This document shows, one piece after another, positions 19,099-51,016 of a stretch of 64,000 nucleotides of DNA (position 1 is its first letter; each line of letters begins with the position of its first letter). The stretch spans positions 46,708 through 110,707 of the forward strand of contig LCDA01000002.1 in assembly GCA_000998275.1 (NCBI GenBank), read 5' to 3'. Under the pieces are notes generated by a model. The model saw only the letters and a list, made by a program, of their open reading frames with translations. It had not been told where the DNA came from and searched no databases. The translations under genes and the position numbers were made by a program. Origin of the DNA: Candidatus Collierbacteria bacterium GW2011_GWA2_42_17. Lineage in GTDB: Bacteria; Patescibacteriota; Microgenomatia; UBA1400; MFAQ01.

Positions 19099-19521
19099 TT
19101 GGAAAACCGTGTCTTCGTCTCCAATCGTTATAAGTTCTTTCCCGATCTGCACACAAAGCTAAAACAGCAGCGATGTGATCTCGCCAACAAAGACGATATC
19201 CGCCTGGAATATAACCAGTATCACAACCTCTACCCCGAAAAGTACGCCCTTCTCGGACCGCCCATTGTCATCCAACACAAAAACATCTTCGGCAAAACTG
19301 TCACCTCTCATCCCAAATCGAGAGTCCTCTGTGGAGTAGAAACAAAATTCAAAAACGACTACAGCGACCTCATCGTTCATGTCAAGCTTTCGGTTTACGG
19401 TCAAAAAAATCTCGAGGCTGTCACTCTGATCGCCCAGGAGATTTATGCTCCTTTGTTGCCATCAACTGCCATCCACGTCATCGTCGACCTCGACTACGAA
19501 ATCTGGGAGTATCTTCTCTAG
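19099..19521 (+). CDS. Hypothetical protein (140 aa)
   Basis: RBS aaaggagga upstream. The gene is flanked by two copies of the same terminator. No family match. Confidence 0.5.
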   Translation: MENRVFVSNRYKFFPDLHTKLKQQRCDLANKDDIRLEYNQYHNLYPEKYALLGPPIVIQHKNIFGKTVTSHPKSRVLCGVETKFKNDYSDLIVHVKLSVYGQKNLEAVTLIAQEIYAPLLPSTAIHVIVDLDYEIWEYLL

Positions 19522-19528
19522 TTTGCCC

Positions 19529-19565
19529 CCCCGCCTAACCACGGCGGGTTTTTATTGGTCAATAC
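19529..19565. terminator. Rho-independent terminator; copy 2 of the 36-nt repeat. Bidirectional, since it overlaps the 3' end of folD.
   Basis: Same hairpin plus T-tract as 18957..18994. On the minus strand the hairpin is followed by a T-rich tract only partly (revcomp of aaccac...). Confidence 0.75.
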
Positions 19566-20352
19566 TCGACAGACTCTCAAAAAGGGACACAATGGTTAGA
19601 GGGCCAACCCCACCCGGAACTGGGGTGATCATCAAAGCCTTTTCAAAAGCGTCGTGAGAAAAATCACCGTTCGTATATCCCAAGTCGATTCCTATAAAAC
19701 CATCATCAACCATTTCTCCTTTTATAAGCCCCGCGACTCCCGTCGCCGCAATCACCACGTCATATTTTTTCAAACTCATCAGGTCATCTCCTTTATCCAA
19801 TCCCGTTACTTGATACCCTAATTTTTGTAATCGGAGTGTCAGTCTTTTTCCCACTTCGCCCATTGCCCCAACAACAACAATTGTCTGTTCCTCATCCACA
19901 TTAAATATTTCCAAAACTCTCTCCACTGCCCCGACAACCGCCGGAATGAACCTAGATTTCGGGTTTAGTCCGTCTATATCCTTTTCCGGATTAATCGTAT
20001 ACAAAATTTGTTCAGTTTCCTCTTTACTAGCCCCTGTTATCGGCAACTGTACCAATATACCGTCTACTGTTTCGTCGGTATTGGCATCCGCCAACATCTC
20101 CCTCAACTCCTCCTTGTTTTTTGCAAATGACACCGTTACCAAAACCCCAAGTCTCTCCCCCATCTCCCGTTTCAGACGTACATAAATACTTTCTTCTGCA
20201 TGTCCGTCACACTGCAAAATCAAAAGGCTCTTTCCTAAAAGCTTTTCCGACTCCTCCAAAAATTTAGCTACTTTTTCCGCTTCTTTCTTTCCGTCTAATA
20301 CTAGTTTGGGCATGGGTATTTTTTGCAAATTACTAATAACGCCGTTTACCAC
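19552..20352 (-). CDS. folD: Bifunctional methylenetetrahydrofolate dehydrogenase/cyclohydrolase
   Basis: Conserved PVPGGVGP motif, a Rossmann-type segment (VVVGAMGEVGKRL), and 266 aa. Confidence 0.88.
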   Translation of the reverse strand: MVNGVISNLQKIPMPKLVLDGKKEAEKVAKFLEESEKLLGKSLLILQCDGHAEESIYVRLKREMGERLGVLVTVSFAKNKEELREMLADANTDETVDGILVQLPITGASKEETEQILYTINPEKDIDGLNPKSRFIPAVVGAVERVLEIFNVDEEQTIVVVGAMGEVGKRLTLRLQKLGYQVTGLDKGDDLMSLKKYDVVIAATGVAGLIKGEMVDDGFIGIDLGYTNGDFSHDAFEKALMITPVPGGVGPLTIVSLFESLSSIDQ

Positions 20353-20378
20353 CTTATTTGCGTAGATCTAATTGTATC

Positions 20379-21005
20379 TCAAATCAAACCAAACTCCTTC
20401 AGGGTAACCAGAGAATCATCCAGTACCTTAGGAATACTTTGCGACACATCAATCACTCTCCAAAAATCAGGATACTTTACCGACAACTCCAGATATGCAT
20501 CCCGTACCCGGGAATGAAACGCGAGCTCCTTCATGTCATATCTGTCTTTGTCATCACAGTTCATTTTGCGCACCATCGCCAGTTCCGGCGCCAAATCATA
20601 ATGGAGTACCAGGTCCGGCATTAATCCCTTCGTCGCAATCTTAGAAACCGCAACGATAATCGCCTTATCTACCTTCTCCGAACTTTGATACGCATAGCTA
20701 CTAAACCAGTATCTATCCAGAAGCACTCCCTTACCCTCCCTTAATCCCTCCAAAATCGGAATCACTCTCGTGTTGATGAGATTAGCTCTCGATGCGCTAT
20801 ATGTTAGAAAGGCTGCCATTGGATCAATCTCAATACCGTGAGTTTCCTGAACCGCAGTACGCAGTAACTCACCGTAATCCGTACCTCCTGGTTCTCTAAA
20901 AAATTTCCAATCCTGAAGATACTCTCTGATTCCTTTAATGGCCGTTGTTTTGCCGCTTCCCGATCCTCCCTCAATCACCAGCAAAGGTTTTTTATTCTCG
21001 GTCAT
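20379..21005 (-). CDS. tmk: Thymidylate (dTMP) kinase
   Basis: P-loop LLVIEGGSGSGKTT and the Tmk signature REPGGT. 208 aa. Confidence 0.85.
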   Translation of the reverse strand: MTENKKPLLVIEGGSGSGKTTAIKGIREYLQDWKFFREPGGTDYGELLRTAVQETHGIEIDPMAAFLTYSASRANLINTRVIPILEGLREGKGVLLDRYWFSSYAYQSSEKVDKAIIVAVSKIATKGLMPDLVLHYDLAPELAMVRKMNCDDKDRYDMKELAFHSRVRDAYLELSVKYPDFWRVIDVSQSIPKVLDDSLVTLKEFGLI

Positions 21006-21333
21006 TTTCTGTCCTTTGAATTGCTAAAAATGTCTCTCTTATTTCTTGCGGTAACTCTGCCTTTGTATCTCTCACATATCTACGGTACTCTTCCAGCACT
21101 TCCTCTTCCGTCGTTCTCCTCACCCTTAAACTATCCTTGTCATCCGAAGTCGATATTGTTTTTTCCAGTATCTCACCCTCTCCACCAACATACTTTTTAT
21201 GAAACGCGCTTTCAAATATTCTTTCTGTCATGAAATAACTTAAACCAATTTCTCTCTTTTGTCTACCATCTATACACATATCCATATATACGCACATAGG
21301 CATCTTCTCTTTTTTTCTTTCCACAAAAATCAT
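20992..21333 (-). CDS. Hypothetical protein (113 aa)
   Basis: ORF overlapping the tmk start by 14 nt. No family match. Confidence 0.35.
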   Translation of the reverse strand: MIFVERKKEKMPMCVYMDMCIDGRQKREIGLSYFMTERIFESAFHKKYVGGEGEILEKTISTSDDKDSLRVRRTTEEEVLEEYRRYVRDTKAELPQEIRETFLAIQRTENDRE

Positions 21334-21370
21334 TTGACAACCAACTCGCTCTCTGCACTACAATACCTCC

Positions 21371-22972
21371 ATGGACCGAAAAGAAGCATATCCCTCAGTT
21401 GAGCTGTCCCGATTTAAATCCAGGGTCTCTTTAATTCTTCACTCGACAGCCCCAATTAATACCAGCTCTTTTACTCCGGAACAAATTTCCCTCCTCAACT
21501 CGGCCACCACCATCGTCAGTGCCGCGGCCCGAACTTGTTACTCTTCAGAAATCCAAACTCCTCTTGATTACCTCCAAAAATCAGATAAATATCGTCAGAT
21601 CTCCGATAGTGTCGTCATTAGCACCAAAGAAGCCGGTCACAACACCACACGTCAGCACGCAAGCTACACTTTTGCTCTGGAAAACATCTCTCGATTGGCA
21701 ATAAATTTTCTCCACTCACAACCTTTCTACAACTCCGAAGAAATGTCCCAACGTTACGTCAACATGGCCGACACCAGGTCTCTCACTCCCGACACCGGCA
21801 ACGAAGACCACAACCGCGCCCTCTCTGAAGCAGCCACCTCGCTCAGCACCGCCTACAATCATCTTCAAGAACTCCTCACCCCTACCACCAGGAAATTTAT
21901 TCTTGAACGCTTTCCCGGGCGTGACACCGAGGCTTGGAGAAACAAGATTAACAATGAAGCCGGCAAAAAATCCCAAGAAATTGCCCGCTATCTTCTTCCA
22001 CTTGGTATGCCTACCAATCTTCATTTCACCATCAACGAACTAACTCTCAAACGTCTCTATCATCTCTCGCAAAACCTCCCCATTACCAACGAACTATCCG
22101 CCATTATTCAGGGCATGGTAGACGTAGCCATATCTACCGACCCCTCACTCCAACAGGAGTTAGACAAACCTCTTCCTATTCTGGCTCGTCCAAGATATAA
22201 CCCCAAAAACACTGACCATCACTCTGAAAATATCGCTATTATCGACAACCTATCTCCCATCTCTCCCAACATCACTCGAGCTGTCCGTCACATCCTTGGA
22301 GTCACTTCAGAGGAAATCTCTGATGATGATGCCCTCAAACTTGTTTTCGATCCCAACATTAATCCCTTAATGACCCAAGTTGATGGCGACGGTGTCATTG
22401 ATCATCTTTCCCAAAGTCTTAATCAGGTGAATCTTTCAGTCGAGCTCTCCCTAAGCCATACCGCCAACTACCAACTCCATCGTCATCGCTCTCTTAACCA
22501 CACCACCCCCTTAATCATTCCTCTTCCTCAATCCGAAAGCGACTATGTTATCCCCACCATTCTCGACTCTAATCCTGAAGCTTATGAATTCTTTTTGGAA
22601 ACTCTCGCCCTTCATAGCCAAAAACTCCAAAACCTTTTTGACCAAGGCATTTCCCTCGAACATCTCCAATATCTACTCCCCAACGCCGTTCGTATCCATA
22701 AATCCGTTTCTGGACCTTTTGGAGCCTGGTATCACTTTCTCAAAACCAGAAATTGTTTTAATGCCCAAGAAGAAATCAATGCCATCGCCACCTCAATCAC
22801 CAAACAAATAATCGACATTGACCCGGCTCTCGCTCCCCATCTAGATCATCTCGTCCCTTGCGGTCTTCGCAAAGAATCAAACGTCAAACCATACTGTCCC
22901 GAAGGTGCTCGCTTTTGTGGCGTACGTATCTGGAACCTTTCCGTCAAAGACTATCCCCGGCGTAATATCTAA
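21371..22972 (+). CDS. thyX: Tandem two-domain flavin-dependent thymidylate synthase (ThyX)-like protein
   Basis: Both halves align to the ThyX fold. Half 1: GHNTT..FTF...AI......SQRYV then LPLGMPTNLHFTINELTLKRL. Half 2: LHRHRS.. then LLPNAVRIHKS...FLKTRN...AQEEI. The gene lies next to tmk. 533 aa, against about 220 aa for a single-domain ThyX. Confidence 0.55.
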   Translation: MDRKEAYPSVELSRFKSRVSLILHSTAPINTSSFTPEQISLLNSATTIVSAAARTCYSSEIQTPLDYLQKSDKYRQISDSVVISTKEAGHNTTRQHASYTFALENISRLAINFLHSQPFYNSEEMSQRYVNMADTRSLTPDTGNEDHNRALSEAATSLSTAYNHLQELLTPTTRKFILERFPGRDTEAWRNKINNEAGKKSQEIARYLLPLGMPTNLHFTINELTLKRLYHLSQNLPITNELSAIIQGMVDVAISTDPSLQQELDKPLPILARPRYNPKNTDHHSENIAIIDNLSPISPNITRAVRHILGVTSEEISDDDALKLVFDPNINPLMTQVDGDGVIDHLSQSLNQVNLSVELSLSHTANYQLHRHRSLNHTTPLIIPLPQSESDYVIPTILDSNPEAYEFFLETLALHSQKLQNLFDQGISLEHLQYLLPNAVRIHKSVSGPFGAWYHFLKTRNCFNAQEEINAIATSITKQIIDIDPALAPHLDHLVPCGLRKESNVKPYCPEGARFCGVRIWNLSVKDYPRRNI

Positions 22973-38992: not shown

Positions 38993-40198
38993 ATGCCCAA
39001 CGATGACCTCGGAAGTTTCCCTATGCCTCAACAAACGCCCTCCGCCCCTGTAGAGCCTGTTGTCGCCGACAACGTAGCACCACCACCCATTACCTCACCG
39101 ATACCAAGCGAAGAAGGGTCACCTCAAATCGAACCCATCGTATCCACCACCATGGAAAATACTTCTCCGGCAACTCCACCGATTATCTCCCCGGAGACTC
39201 CCACTTCCGAACCTCAAACTCCTCAATTTCCTACCTTTGAAGAAACTCCAGAAGAAATTCCCTCGCAACAAATGTCTACCATTTTGGTTGATGAGCATGA
39301 AAAACTTGCCGCCGCCAACGAAAGTATGATCGAGAAACAATCCCCTTCGTTAACTTCACAGCCCGCACTCCAACCTGAACCGGTTAAGCCAGCCGAAACT
39401 CCACCCGAAGCTGCTCTTCCACCAAAATCCCGGTCCCTGGCCCCCGTTATTATCGTCATTCTCTTAATAGTTGCCGGTGTCGGCCTCGCCGCCGCCGCAT
39501 ATCTCTCTTCCCAGTCAAATAAACTCAAAACACAGCTTTCCGAAATTACACAGACTCTCGAAAAACAAAAAACAATTCTCACCCCTACCGTCACCCCTAC
39601 CGTTTTTCAAATCCCGACTCCCACAACTGCTACTCAAACTGCCGTCATTGCTACTTCCTCAGCTACCCCTACTACAACAACAATACCCATCAACACCGAG
39701 GAAATCCTCCCGCTAACAAACGCCGCTGCGGTTCTTAAAGTGGCCATCAACCACTCACCCAATGCTCAACTAATTCTCATTAAAGTCGACAACGCTACCG
39801 ACCCCTCAACCGTCGTTACCAAGTACTTTTTCCGTGAAGACTTGACCACCAAAAAGTACTTCTTTGTCTCCATTTCCAGCAATGGTATTCCCGAACTTAT
39901 TGATAAACAAATTTATGTTAATCCTGACAACAATATCCCTTCTCTAAACGACGCTGTTCTGACAAACAAAATGGGAATGGATCTTGGTGAAACCTTAAAA
40001 CTTACCTACACTCAATGCGCCAACCAAACCGCTTGTACCTCTGCCCCCGTTAAGGCGATGTACATCAATACCAGCTCAGGCATCACTTGGCAACTCTCTC
40101 TTTACACCAATGGTCTCTCCGCGACACCTCTTTTGATTCAAATAAACGCCGAGACAAAAGCCATCATTTACAAATCCCCCGAGTTCGCCAACAAATAA
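38993..40198 (+). CDS. Pro/Thr-rich single-pass membrane protein of unknown function (401 aa)
   Basis: Low-complexity P/T/E-rich N-terminal region, a TM helix (LAPVIIVILLIVAGVGLAAAAYL), and a C-terminal globular region. Confidence 0.5.
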   Translation: MPNDDLGSFPMPQQTPSAPVEPVVADNVAPPPITSPIPSEEGSPQIEPIVSTTMENTSPATPPIISPETPTSEPQTPQFPTFEETPEEIPSQQMSTILVDEHEKLAAANESMIEKQSPSLTSQPALQPEPVKPAETPPEAALPPKSRSLAPVIIVILLIVAGVGLAAAAYLSSQSNKLKTQLSEITQTLEKQKTILTPTVTPTVFQIPTPTTATQTAVIATSSATPTTTTIPINTEEILPLTNAAAVLKVAINHSPNAQLILIKVDNATDPSTVVTKYFFREDLTTKKYFFVSISSNGIPELIDKQIYVNPDNNIPSLNDAVLTNKMGMDLGETLKLTYTQCANQTACTSAPVKAMYINTSSGITWQLSLYTNGLSATPLLIQINAETKAIIYKSPEFANK

Positions 40199-40243
40199 TT
40201 TCTAAAACAAAATTTAATACATCACTCTTGTGTATTTTTTCTG

Positions 40244-40326
40244 TGCCAAGGACAAGATTCGAACTTGTGTAGGCTTGCGCCGCGGGTTTTACAGACCCGA
40301 GTATTTGACCACTCTACCACCTTGGC
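40244..40326 (-). tRNA. tRNA-Tyr (anticodon GTA), type II with a long variable arm; CCA not encoded
   Basis: Cloverleaf folded by hand. Acceptor GCCAAGG/CCTTGGC, anticodon loop CTGTAAA, T-loop TTCGAAT. Confidence 0.85.
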
Positions 40327-40343
40327 ATTACCCTTTTACAGGG

Positions 40344-40416
40344 AGCCGTTGTTGAGACTCGAACTCAATACCTTTCCCTTACCAAGGGAATGCTCTGCCA
40401 GGTGAGCTACAACGGC
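40344..40416 (-). tRNA. tRNA-Thr (anticodon GGT)
   Basis: Acceptor GCCGTTG/CAACGGC, D-stem GCTC/GAGC, anticodon loop TTGGTAA, T-loop TTCGAGT. Confidence 0.85.
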
Positions 40417-40441
40417 TAATTAACCAACACCATATTTTACC

Positions 40442-41074
40442 TCATTTCATGCCCAATTTCCCAAGCTCATTCATTATGTATGATTTTAGGTGGGTATTAA
40501 AGAATCCGACGGTCATCACTCCATGTTTACAAATCTTCTTGTAAGTTCCTTTCCCCATCGAGTGTATTGGTTTCGTTGTCTTTATAGTATCTGGATCAAT
40601 ACCAAGCATTCTTCCCCAATACTTCCTTGCCTTAACCAAATCATTATCTTTAAAGGTTTGTAAATAATAACCAAATTTATCTTCCTTTGCACGACAAATT
40701 ATTCTTAAATACAACATAAACTGCTTTATCACCCCAGGATCGGAATTGGTCACTCGAACTGCATAACTAGTAGTTTTATTTCCCTCTCCCCAATACAATC
40801 CCAAAGCTAAATACTTTAGCTTCACTTCATCTCTGGTTAATCTCGTTTTTATACAAAAAGGTTCACCATCAGGATTGTGTTTAATATAATTGGCTTCAGA
40901 ACGCTTTCTCCTTACAATCCCATACTTATCCATCCAATAAATTACTTTGTGTGTTTTAAACCCCAACTTTATCGCTATTTCCGAAAGCGATTGTTTTTTA
41001 TCGATATATAGCTCTTTTAACTCATCCTTGGTCGGGATTCTTGCCATATATCCATTATCCCGAAAAATACCCAA
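40442..41074 (-). CDS. Putative free-standing LAGLIDADG-like homing-endonuclease-family protein with an N-terminal HTH (210 aa)
   Basis: The motif YLALGLYWGEGN resembles LAGLIDADG (with GEG standing for GDG), followed by a hydrophobic stretch of the right spacing. N-terminal HTH-like segment SLSEIAIKLGFKTHKVIYWMDKYGI. Located between tRNA genes. Confidence 0.45.
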   Translation of the reverse strand: MGIFRDNGYMARIPTKDELKELYIDKKQSLSEIAIKLGFKTHKVIYWMDKYGIVRRKRSEANYIKHNPDGEPFCIKTRLTRDEVKLKYLALGLYWGEGNKTTSYAVRVTNSDPGVIKQFMLYLRIICRAKEDKFGYYLQTFKDNDLVKARKYWGRMLGIDPDTIKTTKPIHSMGKGTYKKICKHGVMTVGFFNTHLKSYIMNELGKLGMK

Positions 41075-41133
41075 ATGTCAAATCATTTATGGGTATCAAA
41101 AACAAGATTGTAAGGTAAAATATAGATTGTTGC

Positions 41134-41210
41134 GCCACCTTAGCTCAGTTGGCTAGAGCACCTGTTTTGTAAACAGGGGGTCCTGGGTTCGAATCCCAGA
41201 GGTGGCTCCA
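41134..41210 (+). tRNA. tRNA-Thr (anticodon TGT), CCA encoded
   Basis: Acceptor GCCACCT/AGGTGGC, anticodon loop TTTGTAA, T-loop TTCGAAT, 3' CCA. Confidence 0.85.
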
Positions 41211-41214: not shown

Positions 41215-41907
41215 TTACTTAAAATTCGACCCTACAATGACCATCAAATCGACTGCCGGCTTATCCTCGGCGGACTGTGTGGCCACTTCTCCTCCAACCA
41301 ACTGAGCCAGTTGTATAGCCTGACTTCCCCATTTTCCGGTTAAGTCAATAACTAATGTTTTCTGATAATCTGTCGTCTTGGCGGTCGCTTTTGCCGTTAC
41401 CGAAATTCCCAAAACCTTTTTATCTTTTATTCTCTGTTCCAATGTATTTGTTAAACCCACCGTCTTCGTCCCGTTTACCAATACCACCTTCAAAGGATTA
41501 TTCACGTCTGTCCCTGTAATAGTCAGGGAACCGTCCCCAATATTCACTGGTACCACATCTACAATTACATTTTTTGTCGGGTTGTAAATGTATGCCTTTT
41601 GCGCAATCGAATATATCAATATTTTATCCCCATTCTCCGCCTTGGCAAAAACAGGCTGATCCTTAAGCTTTTCCTTATCCGTCACTGTCGCCATCACCGG
41701 TTCTTCTCCTTCGGGTAGAATGACCAACTTACCCACCAAAGCGACAACTTTTGCCGTCTCTTCTTTAGCAATCTTATTTGGATCTTCTTTCAGCACCTGT
41801 ATCTCTGTTTTTAATTGCCGATTTTCTTTTGAAAGTTTTATCAATCCCCCTATACCTCCAAAAACGATTAACAACACCGCCGCTAAGATAACTTTTCGTT
41901 TGTCCAT
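41215..41907 (-). CDS. LytR_C (LytR/CpsA/Psr C-terminal) domain-containing membrane-anchored protein
   Basis: N-terminal TM plus coiled-coil, and a C-terminal region with a LytR_C-like pattern (KVVLVNGTKTVGLTNTL...KTLVID.....DLMVIVGSNF). Confidence 0.5.
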   Translation of the reverse strand: MDKRKVILAAVLLIVFGGIGGLIKLSKENRQLKTEIQVLKEDPNKIAKEETAKVVALVGKLVILPEGEEPVMATVTDKEKLKDQPVFAKAENGDKILIYSIAQKAYIYNPTKNVIVDVVPVNIGDGSLTITGTDVNNPLKVVLVNGTKTVGLTNTLEQRIKDKKVLGISVTAKATAKTTDYQKTLVIDLTGKWGSQAIQLAQLVGGEVATQSAEDKPAVDLMVIVGSNFK

Positions 41908-41953: not shown

Positions 41954-44900
41954 TTACAAATTTCCACTTTCACTAGCCGTCTCCGTCGGCGTTATTACTA
42001 CCACTGGCGTTGGCGTAGGCGTCTCTGTTGGACTTGGGGTTGAGCTCAACTCAGTTGTAGGAGTTGGCGTTATGGTAGTTTCCAGTATTGGAGTTGGTTC
42101 AGGTGTTACCGTTTCACTTGGCAGGTCAACAACTCCCCCACTTCCTTCAAACTTGCCTGTTTCATTTACTGCTAGAGCAACCCAGGCAAATCGTAAATCC
42201 ATGCCGACTCCTCTACTCAAACGAATCTTAAAGCCTCTGGTATTTACATCGGCAATAGCATAACCGGGAATGTCGGCAACCGAAGCACCTCCTACAATTT
42301 GCACCGTGGCAGTTACCACTGGTTCGTCTTTATATTCTCTCTCAAACAAAATCTCCACTTGGCTGCCTCCAGTTTTAATCGTGGCAAAACCTGCTGTGTC
42401 TTTATTAAACGTTGGCCTTCCGACAAAGTTTACCTCTCCTCTAAAGATCACTTTGCCCAAAAACTCTACTGTGTTCCTAAACACCTCAGCTATTTTCTTG
42501 GAAATTAGGTCTAATATATCAATCTCACTCGAAGTATCACTTTGTATTTCACCGGCAGCCGTGGCCACTCCTGCTACCCGATCACTCAACAGACTCAGTT
42601 TCCTGGTCAAGATATCCACTCCTTCGATCCTCCCGGCCTTTATCGTATCTGCGTAAAGTATTCCTGAAAAAGTGGCGTCACCCGACACTAGTAGGTCCTG
42701 TGTCACCACTTTTGGAGTTATTATTTCCAGTCCGGCAACCACTCTGTCAGCTATTATGTCGGACATGTTTGCCGAGTCAGTCGCAACTTGATTTTTTTCC
42801 ATAATCAGATTAGTCAGCACCTCATAACCATTAGCTACATCAATTCCCTTCATCACTTCAGTAAGATTACTTCCGGTACTGTTACCATTCTTCACAAAAA
42901 CAATTACGACTCCAACTCCTTCTCCGTCATATCCGGTCATCGCCGTCCCAATTATTGCTCCGGCCTTTGTTGCTCTCATCGCCACCCCAGGAATGGATGA
43001 AGAAGTCAGATAATCTCCGGCCTTGATTTCCCCATTTTCCGCCGACACTTTTACTGGCACCCTTCCCGAAAGAGCTACCAGTACCGGAGTTCCCGATACA
43101 TTTCCGTCACCAAGCACCATTCCCGGTTTTGTCGATACTATTCCCAGTACTGTGGAATCATAAGTCTTTCTGGATTTCTGGACGCCATTCTGAATTGAAC
43201 TGTCAACAGAAACGACGTCTCCTTCAGCTATTGAGCCATCATTCGATGAATACACTTCCGCCAAATCAGCCCCGCCGACCTTGAAAGCTTCCAAGAAGCT
43301 ACCTGCTTTAACCGTCACGTTCGTTCCCACCCCTGCCGTATTTTCGGCAAACTGAAAATTGAAGGTCCCTGCCGTTGCTCCGGTAGTGATAATTCCCTGA
43401 ATCCAGACATCAAAACCTTGACCTGCATCTGAAGCAATATTGTTATTAACCATCTCGGCTGGGGTTGTACAGTCTGTAGTTAATGCTTGTAGAAATACAG
43501 CTCCTACTGACTCAGATCCCGACTGCTGAACACTACAAGTGGTAGCTGCAGGACCAAGAATCGCTGCTTTCCAATCCGGCCCGTTACTGCTTCCGTTAGT
43601 TACAATCAGATGCAGTCTGAACACCCAAGATTCACTGGCCGCCATTGAAAACTGTAAAGCTGTATCATTGGTCAGGGTGGTACTATTGGTCACCGCCTGG
43701 TCAGTAGATTTAGTAATAAACAACTTATCTCCCCCAATACAGTTTGTCCAAGCACCGTTTTGGTAACATCTGAATTTATTAGTACTAGTGTTGTAATAGG
43801 TAGCCCCGTTTGTTCCGATTGGATCGGCCGTTCCGTTATCCAGCACCAACAAATCTGGTGTCGCCGTGGCGCTGTTTCCGATTACTACCCTTCCTGTCGA
43901 CGATGTTGGACCAACCATAAAGTTCACATTTCCAGTTCCGGAATATAAGTTTAAAGCCGTTGCACCAGTTGTATTACCCATCGTTATCGTCTTTGCATTG
44001 GCATTGGTACCAATATTAATTGCTCCGGTTGTTCCCGAGTCGAGTGTCACTGTTCCTGTTGTTCCGGTTGTAAAGGACAGATTTCCGGAAGTACCGGTTA
44101 GTAAAGTAATTCCTCCCGTACCGGAGTTGATGTTGACCGAAGTAGACGTATTAGTATTTCCTAAGGTAATCGCTTTTGCCGAAGCTCCGGTTCCAATATT
44201 TAGAGACATCGCCCCGGTCCCTGTAAATAAATTTGCCGTCCCCGTTTGGGCAGTTCCTCCCATCGTAAAGGTTCCATTCGTCGTCGAAGTTCCGAAAGAA
44301 TACGTTGTTGCCCCTGCTCCATCCAAAATAAAGTTCCCCGTACCCGCATACATATTTAGGGCACCCGTTCCCGTCGCACTACCAATCGTAATTGTTTTTC
44401 CGGTCGCGCTATTACCGATGTTTATCGCCCCGACACCGGAATCGATATTAATCGCCTGAGCCAGTGTCGCGTTTCCAATAGTCACTCCACCAGCCGCCGT
44501 TGTATCAATTATCGGAAATGACCTGGCAAAAATACCCAAAGGTGCCGCCGTCGATGACGGTAATGTCCGAGCATTCAAAATATACTGTGATCCCGCACCA
44601 TTTATTGCCGCCGTCGTCTCCCCAAAAGTAAACGCTGTTTTTACGGCTGTTGTCAAAGCAAAGTTCCAAGCCTGTGCATTGTCGCCATTAGCAATGGTAC
44701 TTCCACCTAAAGCAGCCGAAATTGAATCGAGACTGGTACCACTTGCACTACAAGCCCACGCCGTCCCACTATATTTAAGAATCTCTCCCGATGAACAAGT
44801 TCGAAGTAATGACAAACCGGTACTATTTACTAACCCACCGCCGGTACTTAGTTGAACTGCCGAACCCGATACTTTATTTGCCGTTGTGATTGTTGATAGG

Positions 44901-47275
44901 CTAGTATCAGCAATATTGGAAAGTGTATTCAAACTGGCATCTATTGTTTTATTTGTCAAAGCTATCGCAGTGTCCGTCAAAACGACTTTTGTTCCGGTTC
45001 TGATTCTTGCCACACCACCAGTTTGATCAGTAATCACAAACTCTTCGGACGAAGTTGTCGCCGGTCCGAACTGAAGCGTCGTTACTGCTCCAACCGATGG
45101 AGAACCGTCTGATTCTGCCACGGTCACGGATCCTCCGCCTGTTGAATCCGCACTACATGTCCAACCGGTAGCCGCCGTCCATTTTAGAATTTGATTATCA
45201 CTACAAGTCCTAAGTAGCGACAAACCGGAATCATTCACCAAACCACCATTGGCATTTAATGTCGGTGACCCCGATGTACTATCCGTATTACACACCCAAG
45301 ACGTTCCATTGTATTTAAGGATCTCTCCTGATGCGCAGGTTCTGAGCAAAGACAAGCCAGTACTATCTACTAACCCACCGCCGGTACTTAGTTGAACTGC
45401 TGAACCCGATACTTTATTTGCCGTTGTGATTGTTGCCAAATTGGCATCGGTTATTCCCGCAGTCCCGGATAAATTTGAGTTCGTAAGTCCGGAAATAGTA
45501 TTGGCTCCGGCGGCAATCGTTTTATTTGTTAACGTCCCTGACTCATTCAGAAATACAAAGGTGTCATTCCCCGACAAAGCCGGAATCGTCGCTGTTCTAC
45601 TGGCACTTGGTGCTGTAGAGGAAATCGTTGTCGTATTGGTTGTTCCCAATACCAGCTGATTATTTACCTTGGTCAGTGTAAGTGAATTAAACGTTGGTGT
45701 CGCTGTTGAATCGATATTTTGGATCGTATTCACCGACCCACTAACTACACTAAAGTTTGTTGAGTTATAGTTTGCTACTCCTTTTAATGTTGTTGAGGCG
45801 TCCACTCCGGCAATTGTTACTGTTCCTCCAAGAGATACCGGTGAACCGCTCACCGAAATTCCACTCCCCGGAGAGACAAAGATACTACTGTTGGATAGCT
45901 GGCCATTGGTAATACCCGCAGAGGCCGCTAGATTAGCCGAGGTTAATCCTGAAATAGCTGTGTTCGTTACTCCACTCACTCTCCCGTTTGCGTCGGTCGT
46001 CAACACCGGAATGTCTGTCGCTGTGCCGTAGGTTCCGGCTGTTCCCACGCTGGGTAACACTCCCGCAATATTTATCGTTGTCCCGGACGCAGTTACCGTA
46101 TTTAATCCGCTGCCGGTAATCGTAAGACCCCCGGTTAAACTATTTATACTTGATACTCCCGTCCCCACCCCACTTACCGACTGACACTCCCATGAATCTC
46201 CATCCCAACTCAACACCTGGTCTATCGAACAGCCCGTCAAAAGACTCAAACCCGAGTCATTTGTTAACCCCCCTCCGCCTCTCAACGATACTGCGGCTCC
46301 GGATACTTTATTTGCCTCGGTAATTTGAGCCAGTTTTGCATTAGTTATCTCTCCATCACCAATTTTTCCCGACGTAATTGTCCCATCTGTTATTTTGGCT
46401 CCAGTCACAGCGGAATCAGCCAGTTTGATGGTCGTCACCGCCCCGTCAGCCAACTTCAGAGTTGTTATCGAACCATTTACAATCTGGGCATCACCAACCA
46501 CCCCACTATTGATTATGGCCAATCCGGTCACTGGATCTATCGTAATGGCTCCGGAAACTACCGATGGTGTAGGGGATATTTCTGCCCCTGGAAGAATCAC
46601 CGTCACGGTTTCTTGAGCTTGATCTAACCATTTAAAAACCTCTTTTCCAACAGCTGCAGTAGCTATATCCACCTCCTGCAAAGACGGTGTAATGCTTATA
46701 TTTTCAAAATTACCTCGAGTATCTATCGTACCCAAAATTTGGGAATTATCTTTTAGACTTCGCAGATCCACGTCCCCAACCATCTTACCGCCGTTTATTC
46801 TGCCGTTAATTATTTTTACGGGGAGCGTTGTTCCGTCGGTCAGTGTTATACCAACCACTCCGTGTAACACAATCATGGCGTTCTCTATTACTCGATTATC
46901 GTCATCATAGATATTTACCGTCCCCTTTATTTCCTGGGTCAGTTTTGCCTCACCATTTTGATAAACAAGTTCTGTAAGATCAACGTATTTTTCATTTTGA
47001 ATCTGTGCGTTTTGAACTTTTACAAATGCGTACTCTCCGTTGGTTCGTGCTATTACCAAATATGGCTGATTGCCCAAATTGCTCTCTGACAATACCTCCG
47101 GAGTTACTTCCGAAACAGCCTGAATTGTCACTTGTTTTTCAACAACAGCAGGCTTGATCTTGCCGCCACTAATTGCAAAAACAACCCCTCCCCCAGTAAT
47201 CACAAAAAACAGAATCAAGATAAAACGCACTACCTGATCATATTTATTTCCAGTAATTAGCTGAGAACCTTCCAT
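41954..47275 (-). CDS. Giant (1773 aa) N-terminally anchored repetitive surface protein, tail-fibre/adhesin-like
   Basis: N-terminal TM. Short (I/L)TxxKLADGAVT-type repeats. Four copies of a module ANKVSGSAVQL.TGGGLVxSTGLSLLRTC...ILK(Y/W)...W.C with a conserved Cys pair. Long G/T/S/N-rich beta-like tracts. A C-terminal PT-rich linker. The start codon abuts the stop of the upstream gene. Confidence 0.8.
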   Translation of the reverse strand: MEGSQLITGNKYDQVVRFILILFFVITGGGVVFAISGGKIKPAVVEKQVTIQAVSEVTPEVLSESNLGNQPYLVIARTNGEYAFVKVQNAQIQNEKYVDLTELVYQNGEAKLTQEIKGTVNIYDDDNRVIENAMIVLHGVVGITLTDGTTLPVKIINGRINGGKMVGDVDLRSLKDNSQILGTIDTRGNFENISITPSLQEVDIATAAVGKEVFKWLDQAQETVTVILPGAEISPTPSVVSGAITIDPVTGLAIINSGVVGDAQIVNGSITTLKLADGAVTTIKLADSAVTGAKITDGTITSGKIGDGEITNAKLAQITEANKVSGAAVSLRGGGGLTNDSGLSLLTGCSIDQVLSWDGDSWECQSVSGVGTGVSSINSLTGGLTITGSGLNTVTASGTTINIAGVLPSVGTAGTYGTATDIPVLTTDANGRVSGVTNTAISGLTSANLAASAGITNGQLSNSSIFVSPGSGISVSGSPVSLGGTVTIAGVDASTTLKGVANYNSTNFSVVSGSVNTIQNIDSTATPTFNSLTLTKVNNQLVLGTTNTTTISSTAPSASRTATIPALSGNDTFVFLNESGTLTNKTIAAGANTISGLTNSNLSGTAGITDANLATITTANKVSGSAVQLSTGGGLVDSTGLSLLRTCASGEILKYNGTSWVCNTDSTSGSPTLNANGGLVNDSGLSLLRTCSDNQILKWTAATGWTCSADSTGGGSVTVAESDGSPSVGAVTTLQFGPATTSSEEFVITDQTGGVARIRTGTKVVLTDTAIALTNKTIDASLNTLSNIADTSLSTITTANKVSGSAVQLSTGGGLVNSTGLSLLRTCSSGEILKYSGTAWACSASGTSLDSISAALGGSTIANGDNAQAWNFALTTAVKTAFTFGETTAAINGAGSQYILNARTLPSSTAAPLGIFARSFPIIDTTAAGGVTIGNATLAQAINIDSGVGAINIGNSATGKTITIGSATGTGALNMYAGTGNFILDGAGATTYSFGTSTTNGTFTMGGTAQTGTANLFTGTGAMSLNIGTGASAKAITLGNTNTSTSVNINSGTGGITLLTGTSGNLSFTTGTTGTVTLDSGTTGAINIGTNANAKTITMGNTTGATALNLYSGTGNVNFMVGPTSSTGRVVIGNSATATPDLLVLDNGTADPIGTNGATYYNTSTNKFRCYQNGAWTNCIGGDKLFITKSTDQAVTNSTTLTNDTALQFSMAASESWVFRLHLIVTNGSSNGPDWKAAILGPAATTCSVQQSGSESVGAVFLQALTTDCTTPAEMVNNNIASDAGQGFDVWIQGIITTGATAGTFNFQFAENTAGVGTNVTVKAGSFLEAFKVGGADLAEVYSSNDGSIAEGDVVSVDSSIQNGVQKSRKTYDSTVLGIVSTKPGMVLGDGNVSGTPVLVALSGRVPVKVSAENGEIKAGDYLTSSSIPGVAMRATKAGAIIGTAMTGYDGEGVGVVIVFVKNGNSTGSNLTEVMKGIDVANGYEVLTNLIMEKNQVATDSANMSDIIADRVVAGLEIITPKVVTQDLLVSGDATFSGILYADTIKAGRIEGVDILTRKLSLLSDRVAGVATAAGEIQSDTSSEIDILDLISKKIAEVFRNTVEFLGKVIFRGEVNFVGRPTFNKDTAGFATIKTGGSQVEILFEREYKDEPVVTATVQIVGGASVADIPGYAIADVNTRGFKIRLSRGVGMDLRFAWVALAVNETGKFEGSGGVVDLPSETVTPEPTPILETTITPTPTTELSSTPSPTETPTPTPVVVITPTETASESGNL
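44767..45436. repeat. Two near-identical (2-3 mismatches) intragenic direct repeats of about 130 bp, 540 bp apart, inside the giant gene
   Basis: 44767..44896 against 45307..45436, compared by eye. They correspond to module copies 2 and 4. More diverged copies lie at about 45180-45260 and 46180-46330. Confidence 0.85.
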
Positions 47276-47277
47276 TT

Positions 47278-49263
47278 CTATTTTTCCCCCATCCTTCTCG
47301 TGGTCTTAATAAAAATAATAGAGGTCAGCATCACAATCCCTATGATTAGAAATAATATAAGCAACCAAGTTAACCACGATAGGTTCACATCAAGCACTTT
47401 TTGAACCGGCTCGGAAACAATAACCGTCAATCCATACTTCGAAAGCTTACTTGATCCGAATAAGGAATGTAGTCCTCTCCAGTTATATCCCTCCATATTT
47501 ACCGCGTTTGTTTTCCATAGATCGTAACTACCGTCAGCCTCATTCACCACTACCCCCAGTCTGTCGGCATTAGGGTGTACTACCATTTTTCCTCCCTCCC
47601 CAACCACAACGACTTCCTGTCCCAATGTACTATCACCTACCCTCTGGAGTTCACTTGATAGATTTACTCCTGAAACAGCCACAAATAAAACACCCGATAC
47701 CACATTTTTTGTGTTGACTGTCGGAACGGCAATCAAGAAAACGTCATCAACTCCCTCAATTAAATTTTCTAAGGCCATCGAAACATATGTTTTCCCAGTG
47801 TTTAGTGTTGAGTTAAAAAACTCAGCACCTGCAAAACTAGACGAGTTAAACATTGCCGAGGTTGGATAAGAGGCGATCGGTTCCCCATCTGCCTCAATTA
47901 CACCAGCGATAGCCACATCGGTTCTTCCTAAAGATAAAAACTTCAACTGGTCTGCAAGCTCTTTACTTTGCGAACGAACAAAGGCCTTAATAAACACTTC
48001 ATTCTTTGATAAATCAGTCACTCCTTGTGTCAAACCATCGATGGTTCTTGATAACTCCACCCTGGCAAAATCGGCCTTTTCAGAAAGTCCTCGGTTTGCA
48101 TTACTGATTAAAGTTCCCTGAACCACAGCAATCATCAAAATCACCAATATGAAGCACATGAGAACTGAACCAAAAACTTTAAACACCAAGGTGCGCTCTG
48201 AAACCAACCTGGCCTTAAACGAGTCCCAGGATGGCAAAACCATACCTATTAAACCTGCGATTAGAGTCGCAAAGAACCTTGACCAATAATTCTCTATACC
48301 GTAATAGAGTGCCAAACTACAAAGTATCAATCCATAAGCAAACGAAATACTCTTCAGAAATCTCTTGTTCCAAAAAAATCCATAAAGACCGAAGGCAATC
48401 AGTACCAATATTAACAGGCTTAAAAGCCATCCTAAACCACCAAATACCGACTTTAATCCCAAAGTTACTACTGACAGGTCTGAGCCGTCAGGAAAAAAGT
48501 TTAAAGCAATAAACACACTAATTAGTAATCCAAAAATATATAGCATATACAAAGTTGAAGACTCAACTTCGCTCAAAGCCTCAATCAAAATCACCAAACC
48601 AAACAAGCCGTGAATCAAAAAACCGTCAATGTCTCCTCCTGAAAACAAAACTACCGCTAACCCCAAAAAGGTAGCCCCCAAAAAATATCGGAAAATATTT
48701 GTCAGGTTCACTGTACGTCCAACCTCTTCTTGAATCATCGAAGCTAGAATCAAACCAAACCCTCCAAATATCATTCCCAAACGAACTGGATTTAACCAAA
48801 GAGACAGTCTTCCTAGGGATAAAACATCCTGTTGGTTAGAGTACAAAAACAGAGACATTCCCAAAACAATAGATGTCAGGCTTATTAACCAGTCAAACAG
48901 CGTCGGAAATCCTACTCTTTCCACCAACCACAGTCTCATCGTATGCAAAAAAGACTCTCCACTCAGATCCGACAGACTTTTTCCTGGTCTCGGTGTTGGT
49001 AATAATGCGCTAGGTAATACATCTTGTTGTGATAATATCGCTACTCCTTCTTTTTTACTCGTGGTAGGTTTTTCTTTGGACTCGATTATTTCTCCTTCAC
49101 CCTTGTTGCCTTCAAACTTCTTAATTTCCAGCTCTGGAATTCTAAATTTTCCCTTACCGATTCTGACGGAATTTATCAAACCCTCTTTCAAAAAACCATA
49201 GATGCTATTTGTTGAGTAACCAAGAATCTTGGCGGTCTCTGAAACCGAGTATGTTTTCTTCAT
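47278..49263 (-). CDS. Membrane protein with an N-terminal excisionase/MerR-like HTH, about 10 TM helices, a C-terminal extracytoplasmic Cache-like domain and a final TM (661 aa)
   Basis: N-terminus MKKTYSVSETAKILGYSTNSIYGFLKEGLINSVRIGKGKFRIP (HTH_17-like). A long hydrophobic core. The C-terminal soluble region resembles a Cache/sensor domain, followed by WLTWLLILFLIIGIVMLTSIIFI. Confidence 0.65.
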   Translation of the reverse strand: MKKTYSVSETAKILGYSTNSIYGFLKEGLINSVRIGKGKFRIPELEIKKFEGNKGEGEIIESKEKPTTSKKEGVAILSQQDVLPSALLPTPRPGKSLSDLSGESFLHTMRLWLVERVGFPTLFDWLISLTSIVLGMSLFLYSNQQDVLSLGRLSLWLNPVRLGMIFGGFGLILASMIQEEVGRTVNLTNIFRYFLGATFLGLAVVLFSGGDIDGFLIHGLFGLVILIEALSEVESSTLYMLYIFGLLISVFIALNFFPDGSDLSVVTLGLKSVFGGLGWLLSLLILVLIAFGLYGFFWNKRFLKSISFAYGLILCSLALYYGIENYWSRFFATLIAGLIGMVLPSWDSFKARLVSERTLVFKVFGSVLMCFILVILMIAVVQGTLISNANRGLSEKADFARVELSRTIDGLTQGVTDLSKNEVFIKAFVRSQSKELADQLKFLSLGRTDVAIAGVIEADGEPIASYPTSAMFNSSSFAGAEFFNSTLNTGKTYVSMALENLIEGVDDVFLIAVPTVNTKNVVSGVLFVAVSGVNLSSELQRVGDSTLGQEVVVVGEGGKMVVHPNADRLGVVVNEADGSYDLWKTNAVNMEGYNWRGLHSLFGSSKLSKYGLTVIVSEPVQKVLDVNLSWLTWLLILFLIIGIVMLTSIIFIKTTRRMGEK

Positions 49264-49427
49264 GATTTATATATTTGTAACAATTTTCACAAATCCCTAC
49301 AATCACTCTAAGGTAAAAAACAACATCTGTCAAATCAGAAACCCTCTCCCTCTACGTACGGGTCCCAGCTCTGGAGTATTTTGTGTTAAAATACCAGTTG
49401 CTTCATATCAATACCAAAGACTAAAAC

Positions 49428-49727: not shown

Positions 49728-50285
49728 ATGTCATACTGGATATGCTACGAAAACTTGGACCGAACAAGCGGTCATTCGGGTATTCGAGGTCGGGATAATC
49801 TAGAAAGTAAATCCGTGTCTCGACGAAAAGATAGTGTAAAAGAATACCGAAAAAACCCCAACAAGCGGATCATCGCAGAAGGAATTACTCACGATGAGGC
49901 TCTGAACTTAATGGCCCTCACGCCGGAAATCTGTCGACTAACCACCACCGTCGATGATATCTTCGGTCAGTTCAACAGGATTGATAAAGAAACTAAAAAC
50001 GTTATCTCCTTCCTGTTCGACGCCTACGAACAAATCATCGAAGATCGAAAACTCAAAGAAAAAGCCGGTATTACTCCGACAGGAAACTATCTTGATGTTT
50101 TTGTCGATGTCCACTCGGGCAATACGGGGAAATATCTCATCTTTCGCAAGATGAACACTCTTTTTGATGTCCTTCCGGACGGAACCATCGTCGATCTCAA
50201 AGAAGCCATTTTGGCTTTAGGTAAGGAAATCATGGCTGTCGCCCTTGAAAATCAAATTACCATCTGGAATGAAGAAAATAACTAG
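49728..50285 (+). CDS. Hypothetical protein, paralog A (185 aa)
   Basis: Homologous to 50507..51016 (MSYW/MSYY start; IIAEGITHDEALNLMALTPEICRLTTTVDDI against VIAEGISEGKSYQIIQLTPEICLLTAAIEKI). Followed by a terminator. Confidence 0.55.
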   Translation: MSYWICYENLDRTSGHSGIRGRDNLESKSVSRRKDSVKEYRKNPNKRIIAEGITHDEALNLMALTPEICRLTTTVDDIFGQFNRIDKETKNVISFLFDAYEQIIEDRKLKEKAGITPTGNYLDVFVDVHSGNTGKYLIFRKMNTLFDVLPDGTIVDLKEAILALGKEIMAVALENQITIWNEENN

Positions 50286-50506: not shown

Positions 50507-51016
50507 ATGTCATATTACGTTGTCTTTGAGTACACAACCAAAGCCGGAGGATACGCAGGGATACGAACAGCGATTGATTACCAAAACAAGGAGAATTTTA
50601 CTCTCCTCAACCCTACTTTAAACGGCCTATCTACAGTCATTGCTGAGGGTATATCAGAAGGAAAGTCCTACCAAATAATTCAACTCACCCCAGAAATATG
50701 TCTTCTAACGGCTGCTATCGAAAAAATTGATCTCGCCACCAATGGCAGTTTCAACTTTGATAAAAGTCACGGTTTTCTACGAGAAGCATGGGAAACAATC
50801 TACAACAATCGTTTGAATAACAAGGCTGACGGTCTTGTTGTAAAACCTGACTTTCAAGTGGTTGAACCCACTCAAGAATATTCCAATAAAAACCATCTCA
50901 TGATATTTGTCAAAAACAAATTTACCAACACCGACGGGTCAATTGACGATAATCTTCAAATCGCTATCATGGACATTGAAGGTGAAATATACAAAATGAC
51001 TGAAACAAAGCACTAG
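50507..51016 (+). CDS. Hypothetical protein, paralog B (169 aa)
   Basis: RBS ggagaaaatcATG. Paralogous to 49728..50285. Confidence 0.55.
   Translation: MSYYVVFEYTTKAGGYAGIRTAIDYQNKENFTLLNPTLNGLSTVIAEGISEGKSYQIIQLTPEICLLTAAIEKIDLATNGSFNFDKSHGFLREAWETIYNNRLNNKADGLVVKPDFQVVEPTQEYSNKNHLMIFVKNKFTNTDGSIDDNLQIAIMDIEGEIYKMTETKH

Follow-up and report, generated by a model that had tools for sequence, protein, structure and literature searches.

Why should a gene for a giant, tail-fibre-like protein be directly preceded by a gene for a membrane protein that starts with a DNA-binding domain, and what may the one protein do for the other? The question is raised by a stretch of 64,000 nucleotides from Candidatus Collierbacteria bacterium GW2011_GWA2_42_17 (contig LCDA01000002.1, positions 46,708 to 110,707 of the forward strand; hereafter the window, with coordinates counted from its first nucleotide). 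It carries two back-to-back minus-strand open reading frames (ORFs), present exactly where the first-pass annotation had placed them, with a third gene behind them. We propose, as an explanation that we regard as probable if only by a little, that the first gene product is a membrane-bound one-component regulator, which autoregulates the operon for an adhesive fibre that is anchored to the cell, autoprocessed and probably trimeric. The three genes are designated A, B and C:

47278..49263, minus strand: gene A, 661 aa, membrane protein with a helix-turn-helix (HTH) domain of the HTH_17 type, nine transmembrane (TM) helices, a dCache domain and a last TM helix; candidate one-component regulator
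41954..47275, minus strand: gene B, 1773 aa, membrane-anchored, tail-fibre-like modular fibre
41215..41907, minus strand: gene C, 230 aa, TM-anchored LytR_C protein (Pfam; one TM segment)

The stop codon of A is separated from the ATG of B by 2 nt, C starts 46 nt past B, and a scan of the intergenic DNA revealed no terminator-like site or hairpin between the three genes. No paralogues of A, B or C were found elsewhere in the window. In the databases A is matched most closely, at 99% identity, by a protein from a Candidatus Collierbacteria metagenome-assembled genome (MAG). Homologues of A at 80, 52, 41, 39, 27 and 24% identity all have a large gene (834–2388 aa) directly downstream, followed, in the Collierbacteria-type loci among them, by a gene of ~230 aa. 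A scan in which each GTDB species was represented by one genome yielded 46 loci, 45 of them with an A homologue, from Collierbacteria, Gottesmanbacteria, Roizmanbacteria and unclassified Microgenomates/Patescibacteria; the label 'uncultured Pseudomonadales/Gammaproteobacteria' on some of the records is regarded as a placeholder. A homologue of B follows A on the same strand in 43 of the 45, and the other 2 end at a contig edge. The pairing of A with B is far beyond chance and recurs in every related locus with downstream DNA. It is also seen from the other side: P0045 and P0049, two B homologues retrieved through B alone, have an HTH_17 plus dCache gene (651–652 aa) upstream and a gene of 230–232 aa downstream. 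The expectation that homologues of both genes co-occur in other genomes has thus been borne out, while the description as a two-gene module has to be given up, as the order A-B-C is conserved across Microgenomates and the LytR_C gene belongs to it. Where A is only 23–29% identical, the part of B recognisable in most loci comprises residues ~18–220, i.e. an anchor and a domain of ~190 residues; the C-terminal block 1335–1773 is kept in many loci, while the middle is variable and total lengths range from 1083 to 3270 aa.

Two loci deserve mention for their surroundings. In L050 (Gottesmanbacteria) giant fibre genes flank A on both sides, one of 3122 aa upstream (380–9748) and one of 3270 aa downstream (11854–21666), and only the downstream giant carries the N-terminal domain typical of B. 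In L001 (6388–8862), the closest multi-gene relative (A 80% identical), a serine recombinase gene (Resolvase/Recombinase/Zn_ribbon_recom) and small HTH genes lie 1–3 kb upstream of A; they are missing at that position in the window, which suggests a mobile-element insertion beside the module.

Protein A had been read in the first pass as an excisionase/MerR-type HTH joined to about ten TM helices, an extracytoplasmic Cache-like domain and a last TM helix. It can now be divided as follows:

49114..49251, minus strand: A residues 5–50, excisionase/MerR-like winged helix (HTH_17), cytoplasmic (Pfam, TIGR01764 and profile comparison)
48979..49107, minus strand: A residues 53–95, disordered linker joining HTH and membrane domain (predicted local distance difference test, pLDDT, below 50)
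48118..48903, minus strand: A residues 121–382, nine-helix membrane domain with no recognisable family (hydropathy and AlphaFold2, AF2)
47419..48111, minus strand: A residues 385–615, extracytoplasmic double Cache (dCache_1) sensor domain (Pfam)
47311..47382, minus strand: A residues 628–651, last TM helix (hydropathy and AF2)

Profile matches were obtained for both named domains. The dCache_1 family (PF02743) matches residues 385–615 with 49.9 bits (Pfam cut-off 45), and the precomputed domain matches of 36 clusters of A homologues include PF02743 in 34 and HTH_17 (PF12728) in 33. The NCBIfam model TIGR01764 ('excise') matches the HTH of A with 23 bits against a cut-off of 28.8 (E 8e-5), and the family profile of this domain, compared to PDB sequences, matches the Xis protein of mycobacteriophage Pukovnik (4j2n, E 0.005). 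The AF2 model of the A monomer (pLDDT 81, built on 30 sequences) presents residues 1–51 as a β-α-α-β-β-α winged helix (E4–6, H7–14, H18–26, E33–36, E39–43, H44–51; pLDDT 82–85), and the remainder as nine TM helices, a tandem PAS-like Cache domain flanked by TM helices, and the last TM helix, trailed by a ten-residue basic cytoplasmic tail without an output domain. The earlier reading was correct about the last TM helix and mistaken about the number of those before it, the total being nine plus one. Since an odd number of TM helices precedes the extracytoplasmic Cache domain, the HTH is predicted to be cytoplasmic, and the count of Lys and Arg residues in the short loops (10 inside vs 2 outside) places it inside the cell as well. 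Judging from the model, A would thus combine an HTH inside the cell with a sensor outside in one polypeptide, as expected of a membrane-bound one-component regulator.

Mean column identity in the A family is highest in the HTH (0.77), followed by the membrane domain (0.60), dCache (0.47) and the linker (0.40, the lowest); the HTH being the best-conserved region argues for a conserved and specific partner. Invariant residues of the membrane domain include L122-F123-D124-W125 (LFDW), G135, G168, G170, L195, G214, G219, W346 and R357, and those of the dCache region K396, G460, Y466, P467 and G524. The membrane domain has no match in Pfam, NCBIfam or among PDB sequences. The nearest sequence relative of the dCache domain is the KinD sensor, and all Cache matches of A are ligand sensors. 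One locus, L011 (9452–10912), has an A homologue cut to 486 aa, with the HTH and the membrane domain and no dCache, beside intact genes B (1798 aa) and C; the DNA upstream of it is also without the dyad described below, and the shortened gene may reflect decay of the regulator.

The leader of A offers a possible target for the HTH, downstream of a possible promoter:

49275..49292, minus strand: candidate operator dyad TTGTGA-N6-TTACAA, 29 nt before the ATG of A (conservation)
49305..49333, minus strand: sigma-70-like promoter TTGACA-17 nt-TAGAGT (consensus scan; the -35/-10 arrangement is alignable in Collierbacteria-type loci)

Promoter-like matches in the whole region are not above chance, and the promoter is proposed only for its position and conservation. 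The dyad is the sole site with at most 1 mismatch in the 64-kb window. In 19 of the 20 Collierbacteria-type loci TTGTAA-N6-TTACAA is found 21–30 nt (mostly 29) before the ATG, L011 being the exception, and the remaining intergenic DNA around it is not conserved in these loci. Dyad positions 1–4 (TTGT) and 13–17 (TTACA) are invariant across 12 distinct versions, with no compensatory changes. In the distant loci the leader of A contains 2–6 direct copies of (A)ACTTGTAA(A)A, with successive copies spaced by 10–11 bp (19/45), 21–23 bp (14/45) or 31–33 bp (6/45). The hexamer is 8–12 times commoner upstream of A than upstream of other ORFs of the same loci (1.88 and 1.38 vs 0.17 and 0.12 per 100 bp). 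Strict clusters number 21 in 772 kb of loci: 12 are located upstream of A, all in the sense orientation, 6 in the A-B spacer and 3 elsewhere. The spacer clusters occur in loci with the two genes 60–150 bp apart; 5 of these 6 are purely antisense and, where read, they usually come after a terminator-like hairpin. Excisionase-type recombination directionality factors (RDFs) bind direct repeats that recur at intervals of one helical turn, and several also regulate transcription (PMC7498355; PMC11963761). Taken together with the position of the element, we infer that it may be the operator of A, serving autoregulation and, where B has a spacer of its own, separate control of B.

Two observations concern the clusters outside the A leader. 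The spacers of five loci with A and B 130–150 bp apart (L025 6044–6178, L026 4440–4575, L027 12035–12188, L029 12059–12212 and L032 11945–12077) contain a G+C-rich hairpin with a T run (e.g. TCCCGC-CTC-GCGGGA-TTTT), then a conserved GAGGCT box and, after it, 3–5 antisense copies of the ACTTGTAA repeat with a period of ~11 bp. Two of the three stray clusters are found beside a GlgA-like (Glyco_transf_5) gene, just upstream of it in L046 (7300–7339) and at its 3' end in L033 (7816–7847), and L005 has a similar gene close to A. This may point to an additional regulon member or to no more than a conserved neighbourhood.

The N-terminal two thirds of protein B consist of an anchor, a conserved domain and a repetitive stalk:

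47156..47239, minus strand: B residues 13–40, single N-terminal TM anchor (hydropathy peak 2.55)
46571..47143, minus strand: B residues 45–235, conserved, unannotated juxtamembrane N-domain (alignment of 27 sequences)
46298..46483, minus strand: B residues 265–326, LADGAVT-type short repeats (direct reading)
44750..46252, minus strand: B residues 342–842, four Cys-pair modules and internal duplications (regular-expression search and self-comparison by BLAST of chunks)
43826..44638, minus strand: B residues 880–1150, G/T/S/N-rich repeat tract (internal repeats, 25–45% identity), probably β-helical

Residues 13–40 are the sole hydrophobic segment of B. The N-anchor, the LADGAVT repeats, the four Cys-pair modules and the G/T-rich tracts, all noticed in the first pass, were all found again. 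The Cys-pair module GLSLL..C....L.W....W.C occurs exactly four times, at 342, 640, 684 and 820, and the 12 Cys residues of B form six closely spaced pairs, four of them within these modules. Internal duplication is extensive across residues 280–1165, with the G/T-rich repeats at 880–1165. Whole-protein scans of B against Pfam, PHROG and NCBIfam gave nothing significant, and the N-domain has no match in Pfam or among PDB sequences. This domain is still detectable, as the only segment of B, in many loci where A is 23–29% identical, and among the proteins examined it was seen only in fibres following A, an association based on a handful of independent loci. Its profile retrieved only 2 matches from a set of 5.8 billion proteins and missed known members, which makes this search uninformative.

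Two other likenesses of B were considered and dismissed. The phmmer search of whole B against the PDB returned only nanobody and antibody heavy-chain variable domain (VH) matches, dozens in number (E 0.004–1) and judged to be due to chance; the stretch in question is residues 795–882 (about 44630–44893), 'STGGGLVNSTGLSLLRTCSSGEILKY', in which 'GGGLV..LSLLRTC' resembles a VH framework. A type IV pilin-like (class III) N-terminus was rejected for the window protein, which has ...DQVVR|FILILFF and no Gly at -1. A motif of the G-[FMY]-[TI]-P-[ILV]-F type is found, by the strict pattern, in 9 of 48 homologue N-termini, all from distant lineages with Gottesmanbacteria-type B (L005, L025, L029, L030, L032, L044, L046, L047 and L049); there the short basic leader ends directly before the hydrophobic helix and resembles a type IV prepilin signal without Glu at +5. 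A gene for a prepilin peptidase (A24) directly precedes A in L006.

The C-terminal third of B, according to fold comparison and modelling, comprises:

43286..43723, minus strand: B residues 1185–1330, TNF/C1q-like jelly-roll head (fold match)
43265..43270, minus strand: predicted autoproteolytic site A1336/D1337, motif GG-A/DLAEVY (alignment to 3gqh)
42866..43267, minus strand: B residues 1337–1470, Peptidase_G2-type intramolecular chaperone, β-tulip (fold of the gp12 C-terminal fragment)
42476..42865, minus strand: B residues 1471–1600, helical region of low confidence (AF2 helices, pLDDT 33–67), possibly a coiled coil
42161..42403, minus strand: B residues 1625–1705, H-type-lectin-like β domain (model)
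41957..42142, minus strand: B residues 1712–1773, Pro/Thr-rich disordered tail ending in SESGNL (direct reading; pLDDT below 50)

The model of residues 1126–1773 has an overall pLDDT of 67, with 1185–1330, 1335–1470 and 1625–1705 as confident domains, and the modelled residues 1337–1470 adopt the fold of the C-terminal fragment of phi29 gp12. That domain of gp12 is a tandem β-tulip autochaperone, needed for trimerisation (bioRxiv 10.1101/216911). The whole-protein Pfam scan of B gave no match to Peptidase_G2. Among 27 homologous C-parts, 4 match this family at E<=0.01 (best 2e-9), and a 16-sequence profile of the G2-like domain retrieves the gp12 fragment itself (3gqh, E 0.0011). In the alignment residue 1 of 3gqh (DFAEYF...) falls on D1337 of B (DLAEVY) and the Glu three further on E1340, both invariant in the 16 homologues. 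The solved gp12 fragment presumably begins right after its autocleavage site, and we take the Asp and Glu at these positions to be catalytic in gp12; B is therefore predicted to cleave itself between A1336 and D1337. Peptidase_S74 (PF13884) was not matched by Pfam in the window B and is present in the orthologous fibres P0045 and P0046 and in fused ones (P0053, P0068 and P0132; see below), so that the earlier suggestion of an S74/G2-type C-terminal region was right in kind: G2 in the window, S74 in some orthologues. H_lectin (PF09458) did not reach its cut-off on B. The Pro/Thr-rich C-terminus is real, and similar tails are found in B homologues including P0053; its designation as a stalk is doubtful, because it lies beyond the predicted self-cleavage site and may not belong to the mature anchored fibre.

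The relationship of B to viral proteins is one of parts. Foldseek comparison of the C-part to viral models (BFVD) gave 132 matches at E<=0.001, mostly to tail-fibre, collagen-repeat and pre-neck-appendage proteins. A tblastn search of 50,697 phage genomes returned short module matches only, none longer than 13% of B: residues 101–365, which span the LADGAVT repeats, match phage tail fibre, host-specificity J and minor tail proteins (E 1e-4 to 5e-6), and residues 1329–1459 match jumbo-phage virion proteins.

Gene C, expected in the first pass to encode a LytR_C domain immediately downstream of B, passes the Pfam threshold marginally (PF13399, residues 140–229, 22.3 bits vs cut-off 22.2). In the Collierbacteria-type loci the C homologue after B is 57–93% identical, as compared to ~40% for A at the same loci.

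Four giant homologues of B (P0053, P0068, P0099 and P0132) start with one or two HTH_17/MerR domains, followed by one hydrophobic segment and then by fibre modules as in B, namely Cys-pair units, collagen, S74 chaperone, DLxE domain and H-lectin-like end; the Cys-pair module of B itself is present in P0068, P0099 and P0132. P0068 comes from a Dormibacteraeota MAG, and the HTH-TM-fibre protein of a Dormibacteraeota MAG is 2882 aa long. Homologues of C also follow two of these fusions, P0053 (39%) and P0068 (42%), while the B N-domain is, by inspection, absent from the HTH-fused fibres. Such independent fusions in other lineages and the A/B pairs together indicate that the association of HTH and fibre is recurrent, as one chain or as a pair, and its occurrence with tail-fibre-like giants in several phyla, fused or adjacent, suggests a general, unstudied link between fibres and transcription. 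Between the HTHs of P0053 and A the identity is only 23%. A single TTGTAA is found ~30 nt before the ATG of P0053 and no motif array was seen upstream of P0068, from which no conclusion is drawn.

These observations could be united in the following mechanism. The winged helix of A would face the cytoplasm and bind the leader of its own operon at the TTGTAA-type element, most likely repressing transcription, as the site is located between the -10 box and the start codon. The dCache domain, and possibly also the nine-helix membrane domain, would receive a signal, be it a small molecule or the condition of the fibre itself. B would be inserted by its single N-terminal TM helix, and its juxtamembrane domain would probably dock it to A or to the envelope. 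From there B would extend a modular stalk, probably trimeric, tipped by the TNF/C1q-like head, and the G2-type autochaperone right after the head would drive trimerisation and cleave at A1336/D1337. C would be a conserved envelope partner. DNA binding by A and the sign of regulation, trimerisation, cleavage and surface display of B, host adhesion, contact between A and B, and an episymbiotic lifestyle are all inferred here.

Several points weigh against this proposal. On the side of A, HTH_17 (PF12728) matches residues 5–50 with 26.5 bits, 0.5 bit short of the Pfam cut-off of 27; between sensor and HTH there is no recognisable transmitter, only the 40-residue disordered linker, which leaves the signal path unexplained; and, with the regulator fixed in the membrane, its operator has to be brought there too. 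On the side of B, the model is an AF2 monomer of residues 1126–1773 only, made with 27 aligned homologous C-parts, and the G2 domain, when isolated, matches Peptidase_G2 (PF11962) with E 4e-4 and 20.3 bits, missing the cut-off of 25, and is followed, unlike in gp12, by ~300 further residues. As for the cis-element, the hexamer enrichment has p-values of 4e-18 and 4e-24, which overstate independence as the loci are related. The element is itself transcribed, so that it could function at the RNA level, or it could be recognised by some other factor. In distant loci, moreover, the array upstream of A and the one in the A-B spacer point in opposite directions and would be complementary on a common or read-through transcript. 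TTGTAA might not be the operator of A at all, serving instead as a leader-RNA element with pairing arrays or as the site of an unlinked factor, with the HTH binding elsewhere or nowhere. The location downstream of the -10 box and the opposite arrays speak for this, and covariation cannot discriminate, since the paired positions never vary. We nevertheless consider it very unlikely: a 6-bp A/U-rich stem is weak, the direct repeats upstream of A in distant loci cannot form a local hairpin, the spacing of 10–11 bp is a property of the DNA helix and matches binding by this HTH class (PMC7498355), and the motif tracks the A family even where A is only ~24% identical.

Other explanations retain the HTH and assign a different role to A or to B. 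In a variant of the proposed mechanism, unlikely in our opinion yet realistic, load on the fibre or its engagement would be relayed from B through its N-domain to the dCache or membrane domain of A and would change HTH binding, so that the HTH assembles on, or leaves, the phased TTGTAA sites when an ultrasmall symbiont touches its host; the HTH-TM-fibre fusions would then be single-chain versions. The fusions do join HTH and fibre in one polypeptide across a single TM segment, the N-domain of B is retained in fibres encoded after A and lacking in the fusions, and A has no cytoplasmic output besides the HTH, but dCache domains normally bind small molecules, as do the ligand sensors matched by A, and no mechanism for cleavage or release of the HTH is visible. 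Alternatively, A could be mainly a structural or assembly partner of B (a platform, an insertase-like helper or an anchor), with the HTH as a nucleoid tether or a protein-binding module. The tight, probably translational, coupling of the genes is typical for complexes, the large conserved nine-helix domain, which is not known to act in signalling, contains polar positions that never vary, and HTHs are fused to fibres without any sensor domain; since this would leave unexplained both the family-wide motif arrays beside A, with the spacing expected of the HTH class, and the strong conservation of the recognition-helix region, we rate it as decidedly improbable. We give hardly any credence to a prophage remnant with B as a plain phage tail-fibre gene. 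The modules of B do match tail fibre, host-specificity and pre-neck appendage proteins, but there is no full-length phage homologue (the best phage match covers 13% of B), B carries an N-terminal TM anchor, and the gene tables of the loci list no capsid, terminase, tube or sheath genes. Housekeeping genes lie next to the module (rpmG for the 57-aa ribosomal protein L33, 49428..49601, plus strand, divergent from A; tRNA genes downstream of the module; and phosphoribosyl pyrophosphate synthase), the chromosomal context of the three genes is common to Collierbacteria, Gottesmanbacteria and Roizmanbacteria, and the shift in G+C content across B (0.46–0.47 vs 0.40–0.46 elsewhere) is modest. B is assembled from tail-fibre parts, yet it is not a phage gene.

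If A is indeed a membrane-bound one-component regulator, its closest analogues are ToxR-ToxS, TcpP-TcpH, CadC and the polytopic BcrR of Enterococcus. Like A, the ToxR/ToxS-type systems and BcrR have an N-terminal cytoplasmic DNA-binding domain, a membrane anchor, extracytoplasmic sensing and no phosphorelay, and in ToxR/ToxS, as in A-B, the very next gene of the operon encodes a partner anchored in the membrane. A differs in its HTH_17 domain (OmpR-type in ToxR, XRE in BcrR), in its ten TM helices (one in ToxR, four in BcrR) and in its dCache sensor, and the partner is a 1773-residue fibre rather than the small periplasmic protein of ToxR/ToxS; A may work like these systems but is a member of neither family. 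The excisionases and RDFs, such as phage 186 Apl (PMC7498355), RdfS (PMC11963761) and Pukovnik Xis (4j2n), share the winged-helix family with A and, like the candidate sites of A, their sites are short repeats one helical turn apart. They are small, soluble proteins of mobile elements that are accompanied by an integrase, whereas the HTH of A is carried by a polytopic membrane sensor encoded in a chromosomal operon, and no recombinase is found near the module in the window.

Among fibres, the MAT (mosaic adhesive trimer) proteins of Bdellovibrio, which an excerpt of Caulton et al. 2024 (PMC10769870) describes as displayed on the surface, with a part in the handling of prey, are like B in having a modular stalk with a swappable adhesive tip (e.g. 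TNF-like). In the same excerpt MATs have a cleaved signal peptide and belong to a diderm predator, while B has a TM anchor and belongs to a cell of the candidate phyla radiation (CPR); B also differs in its G2-type chaperone, with S74 in orthologues. The conserved 190-residue domain of B can be likened, by position alone, to the conserved β-rich domain after the N-terminal signal of MATs, and the excerpt makes no mention of a linked HTH/dCache membrane protein or a LytR_C partner. In phi29 gp12 the G2/D4 autochaperone is at the extreme C-terminus, whereas in B a helical region, the H-lectin-like domain and the Pro/Thr-rich tail lie beyond it. Release in gp12 needs ATP, which is unavailable outside the cell. 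Compared to the Bacillus BclA/collagen-like exosporium fibres and C1q/TNF-headed fibres, the window B is without a collagen repeat, and it is membrane-anchored, much larger than BclA-type fibres and equipped with a chaperone module. A eukaryotic parallel is MyRF, a membrane-bound transcription factor with a phage-type S74 chaperone (ref. 15 in PMC10769870, as cited in the excerpt). Like the HTH-TM-fibre-S74 fusions P0053 and P0068, it combines a DNA-binding domain, an anchor and a tail-fibre-type chaperone. In MyRF the chaperone and the DNA-binding domain share one side of the membrane, and the chaperone frees that domain by cleavage; the fibre chaperone described here is predicted to be extracellular and, unlike that of MyRF, cannot free the HTH.

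Thus HTH_17, dCache, the G2 chaperone, the TNF-like head and membrane-bound one-component regulators are all of known kinds, and the N-domain of B, the HTH-TM-fibre fusions and the family-wide TTGTAA element in the A leader are new here. In the full-text literature we found no description of an excisionase-type HTH on a ten-helix dCache membrane protein, nor of the pairing of such a protein with a tail-fibre-like giant via a private N-domain, a LytR_C partner or a phased operator, and nothing specific on tail-fibre-like giants of CPR bacteria. It is plausible, as far as sequences can tell, that A-B-C is an undescribed regulated host-attachment device. For host recognition by CPR/Patescibacteria few molecular candidates are available besides type IV pili (e.g. 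PMC12206443, PMC9894109), and the module provides a concrete one, which comprises a fibre with head, lectin-like and chaperone domains, a predicted cleavage site, a membrane regulator and an 18-bp candidate operator. With the proposed mechanism, if true, membrane-bound one-component signalling would come to include an excisionase-type HTH carried by a polytopic dCache protein. The locus is also an example, outside Bdellovibrio, of phage tail-fibre parts, the G2 autochaperone among them, that have been domesticated by a cell. If contact sensing were true, we would be dealing with a widespread, undescribed class of surface-fibre-coupled transcription factors.

The rest of the window supplies a few minor observations. 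The plus-strand GC skew is strongly negative throughout 1–64000 (-0.11 to -0.37 in every 2-kb bin), and the long ORFs are mostly on the minus strand; as there is no skew switch in the window, no origin or terminus is expected within it. Downstream of gene C, positions 40243–41210 hold three clustered tRNA genes, two on the minus strand (Tyr-GTA and Thr-GGT) and one on the plus strand (Thr-TGT). Between these genes lies a 210-aa ORF (40442..41074, minus strand), whose N-terminal 55 residues match PHROG 'HNH endonuclease' families (E 4e-9) and which also shows a weak match to a MerR-type HTH; it may be a homing-endonuclease-like insertion. On the other side of the module, beyond rpmG, two adjacent plus-strand ORFs (49728–50285 and 50507–51016, 185 and 169 aa) are paralogues with 29% identity (E 2e-13), which share MSYW/MSYY..G.SGIR..AEGI....LTPEIC motifs and have no significant Pfam match. 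Finally, the 401-aa ORF at 38993–40198 (plus strand) is a candidate for another envelope protein near the module: the long N-terminal half of its product is rich in Pro, Thr and Ser, a single TM segment is present, and Pfam assigns no family.

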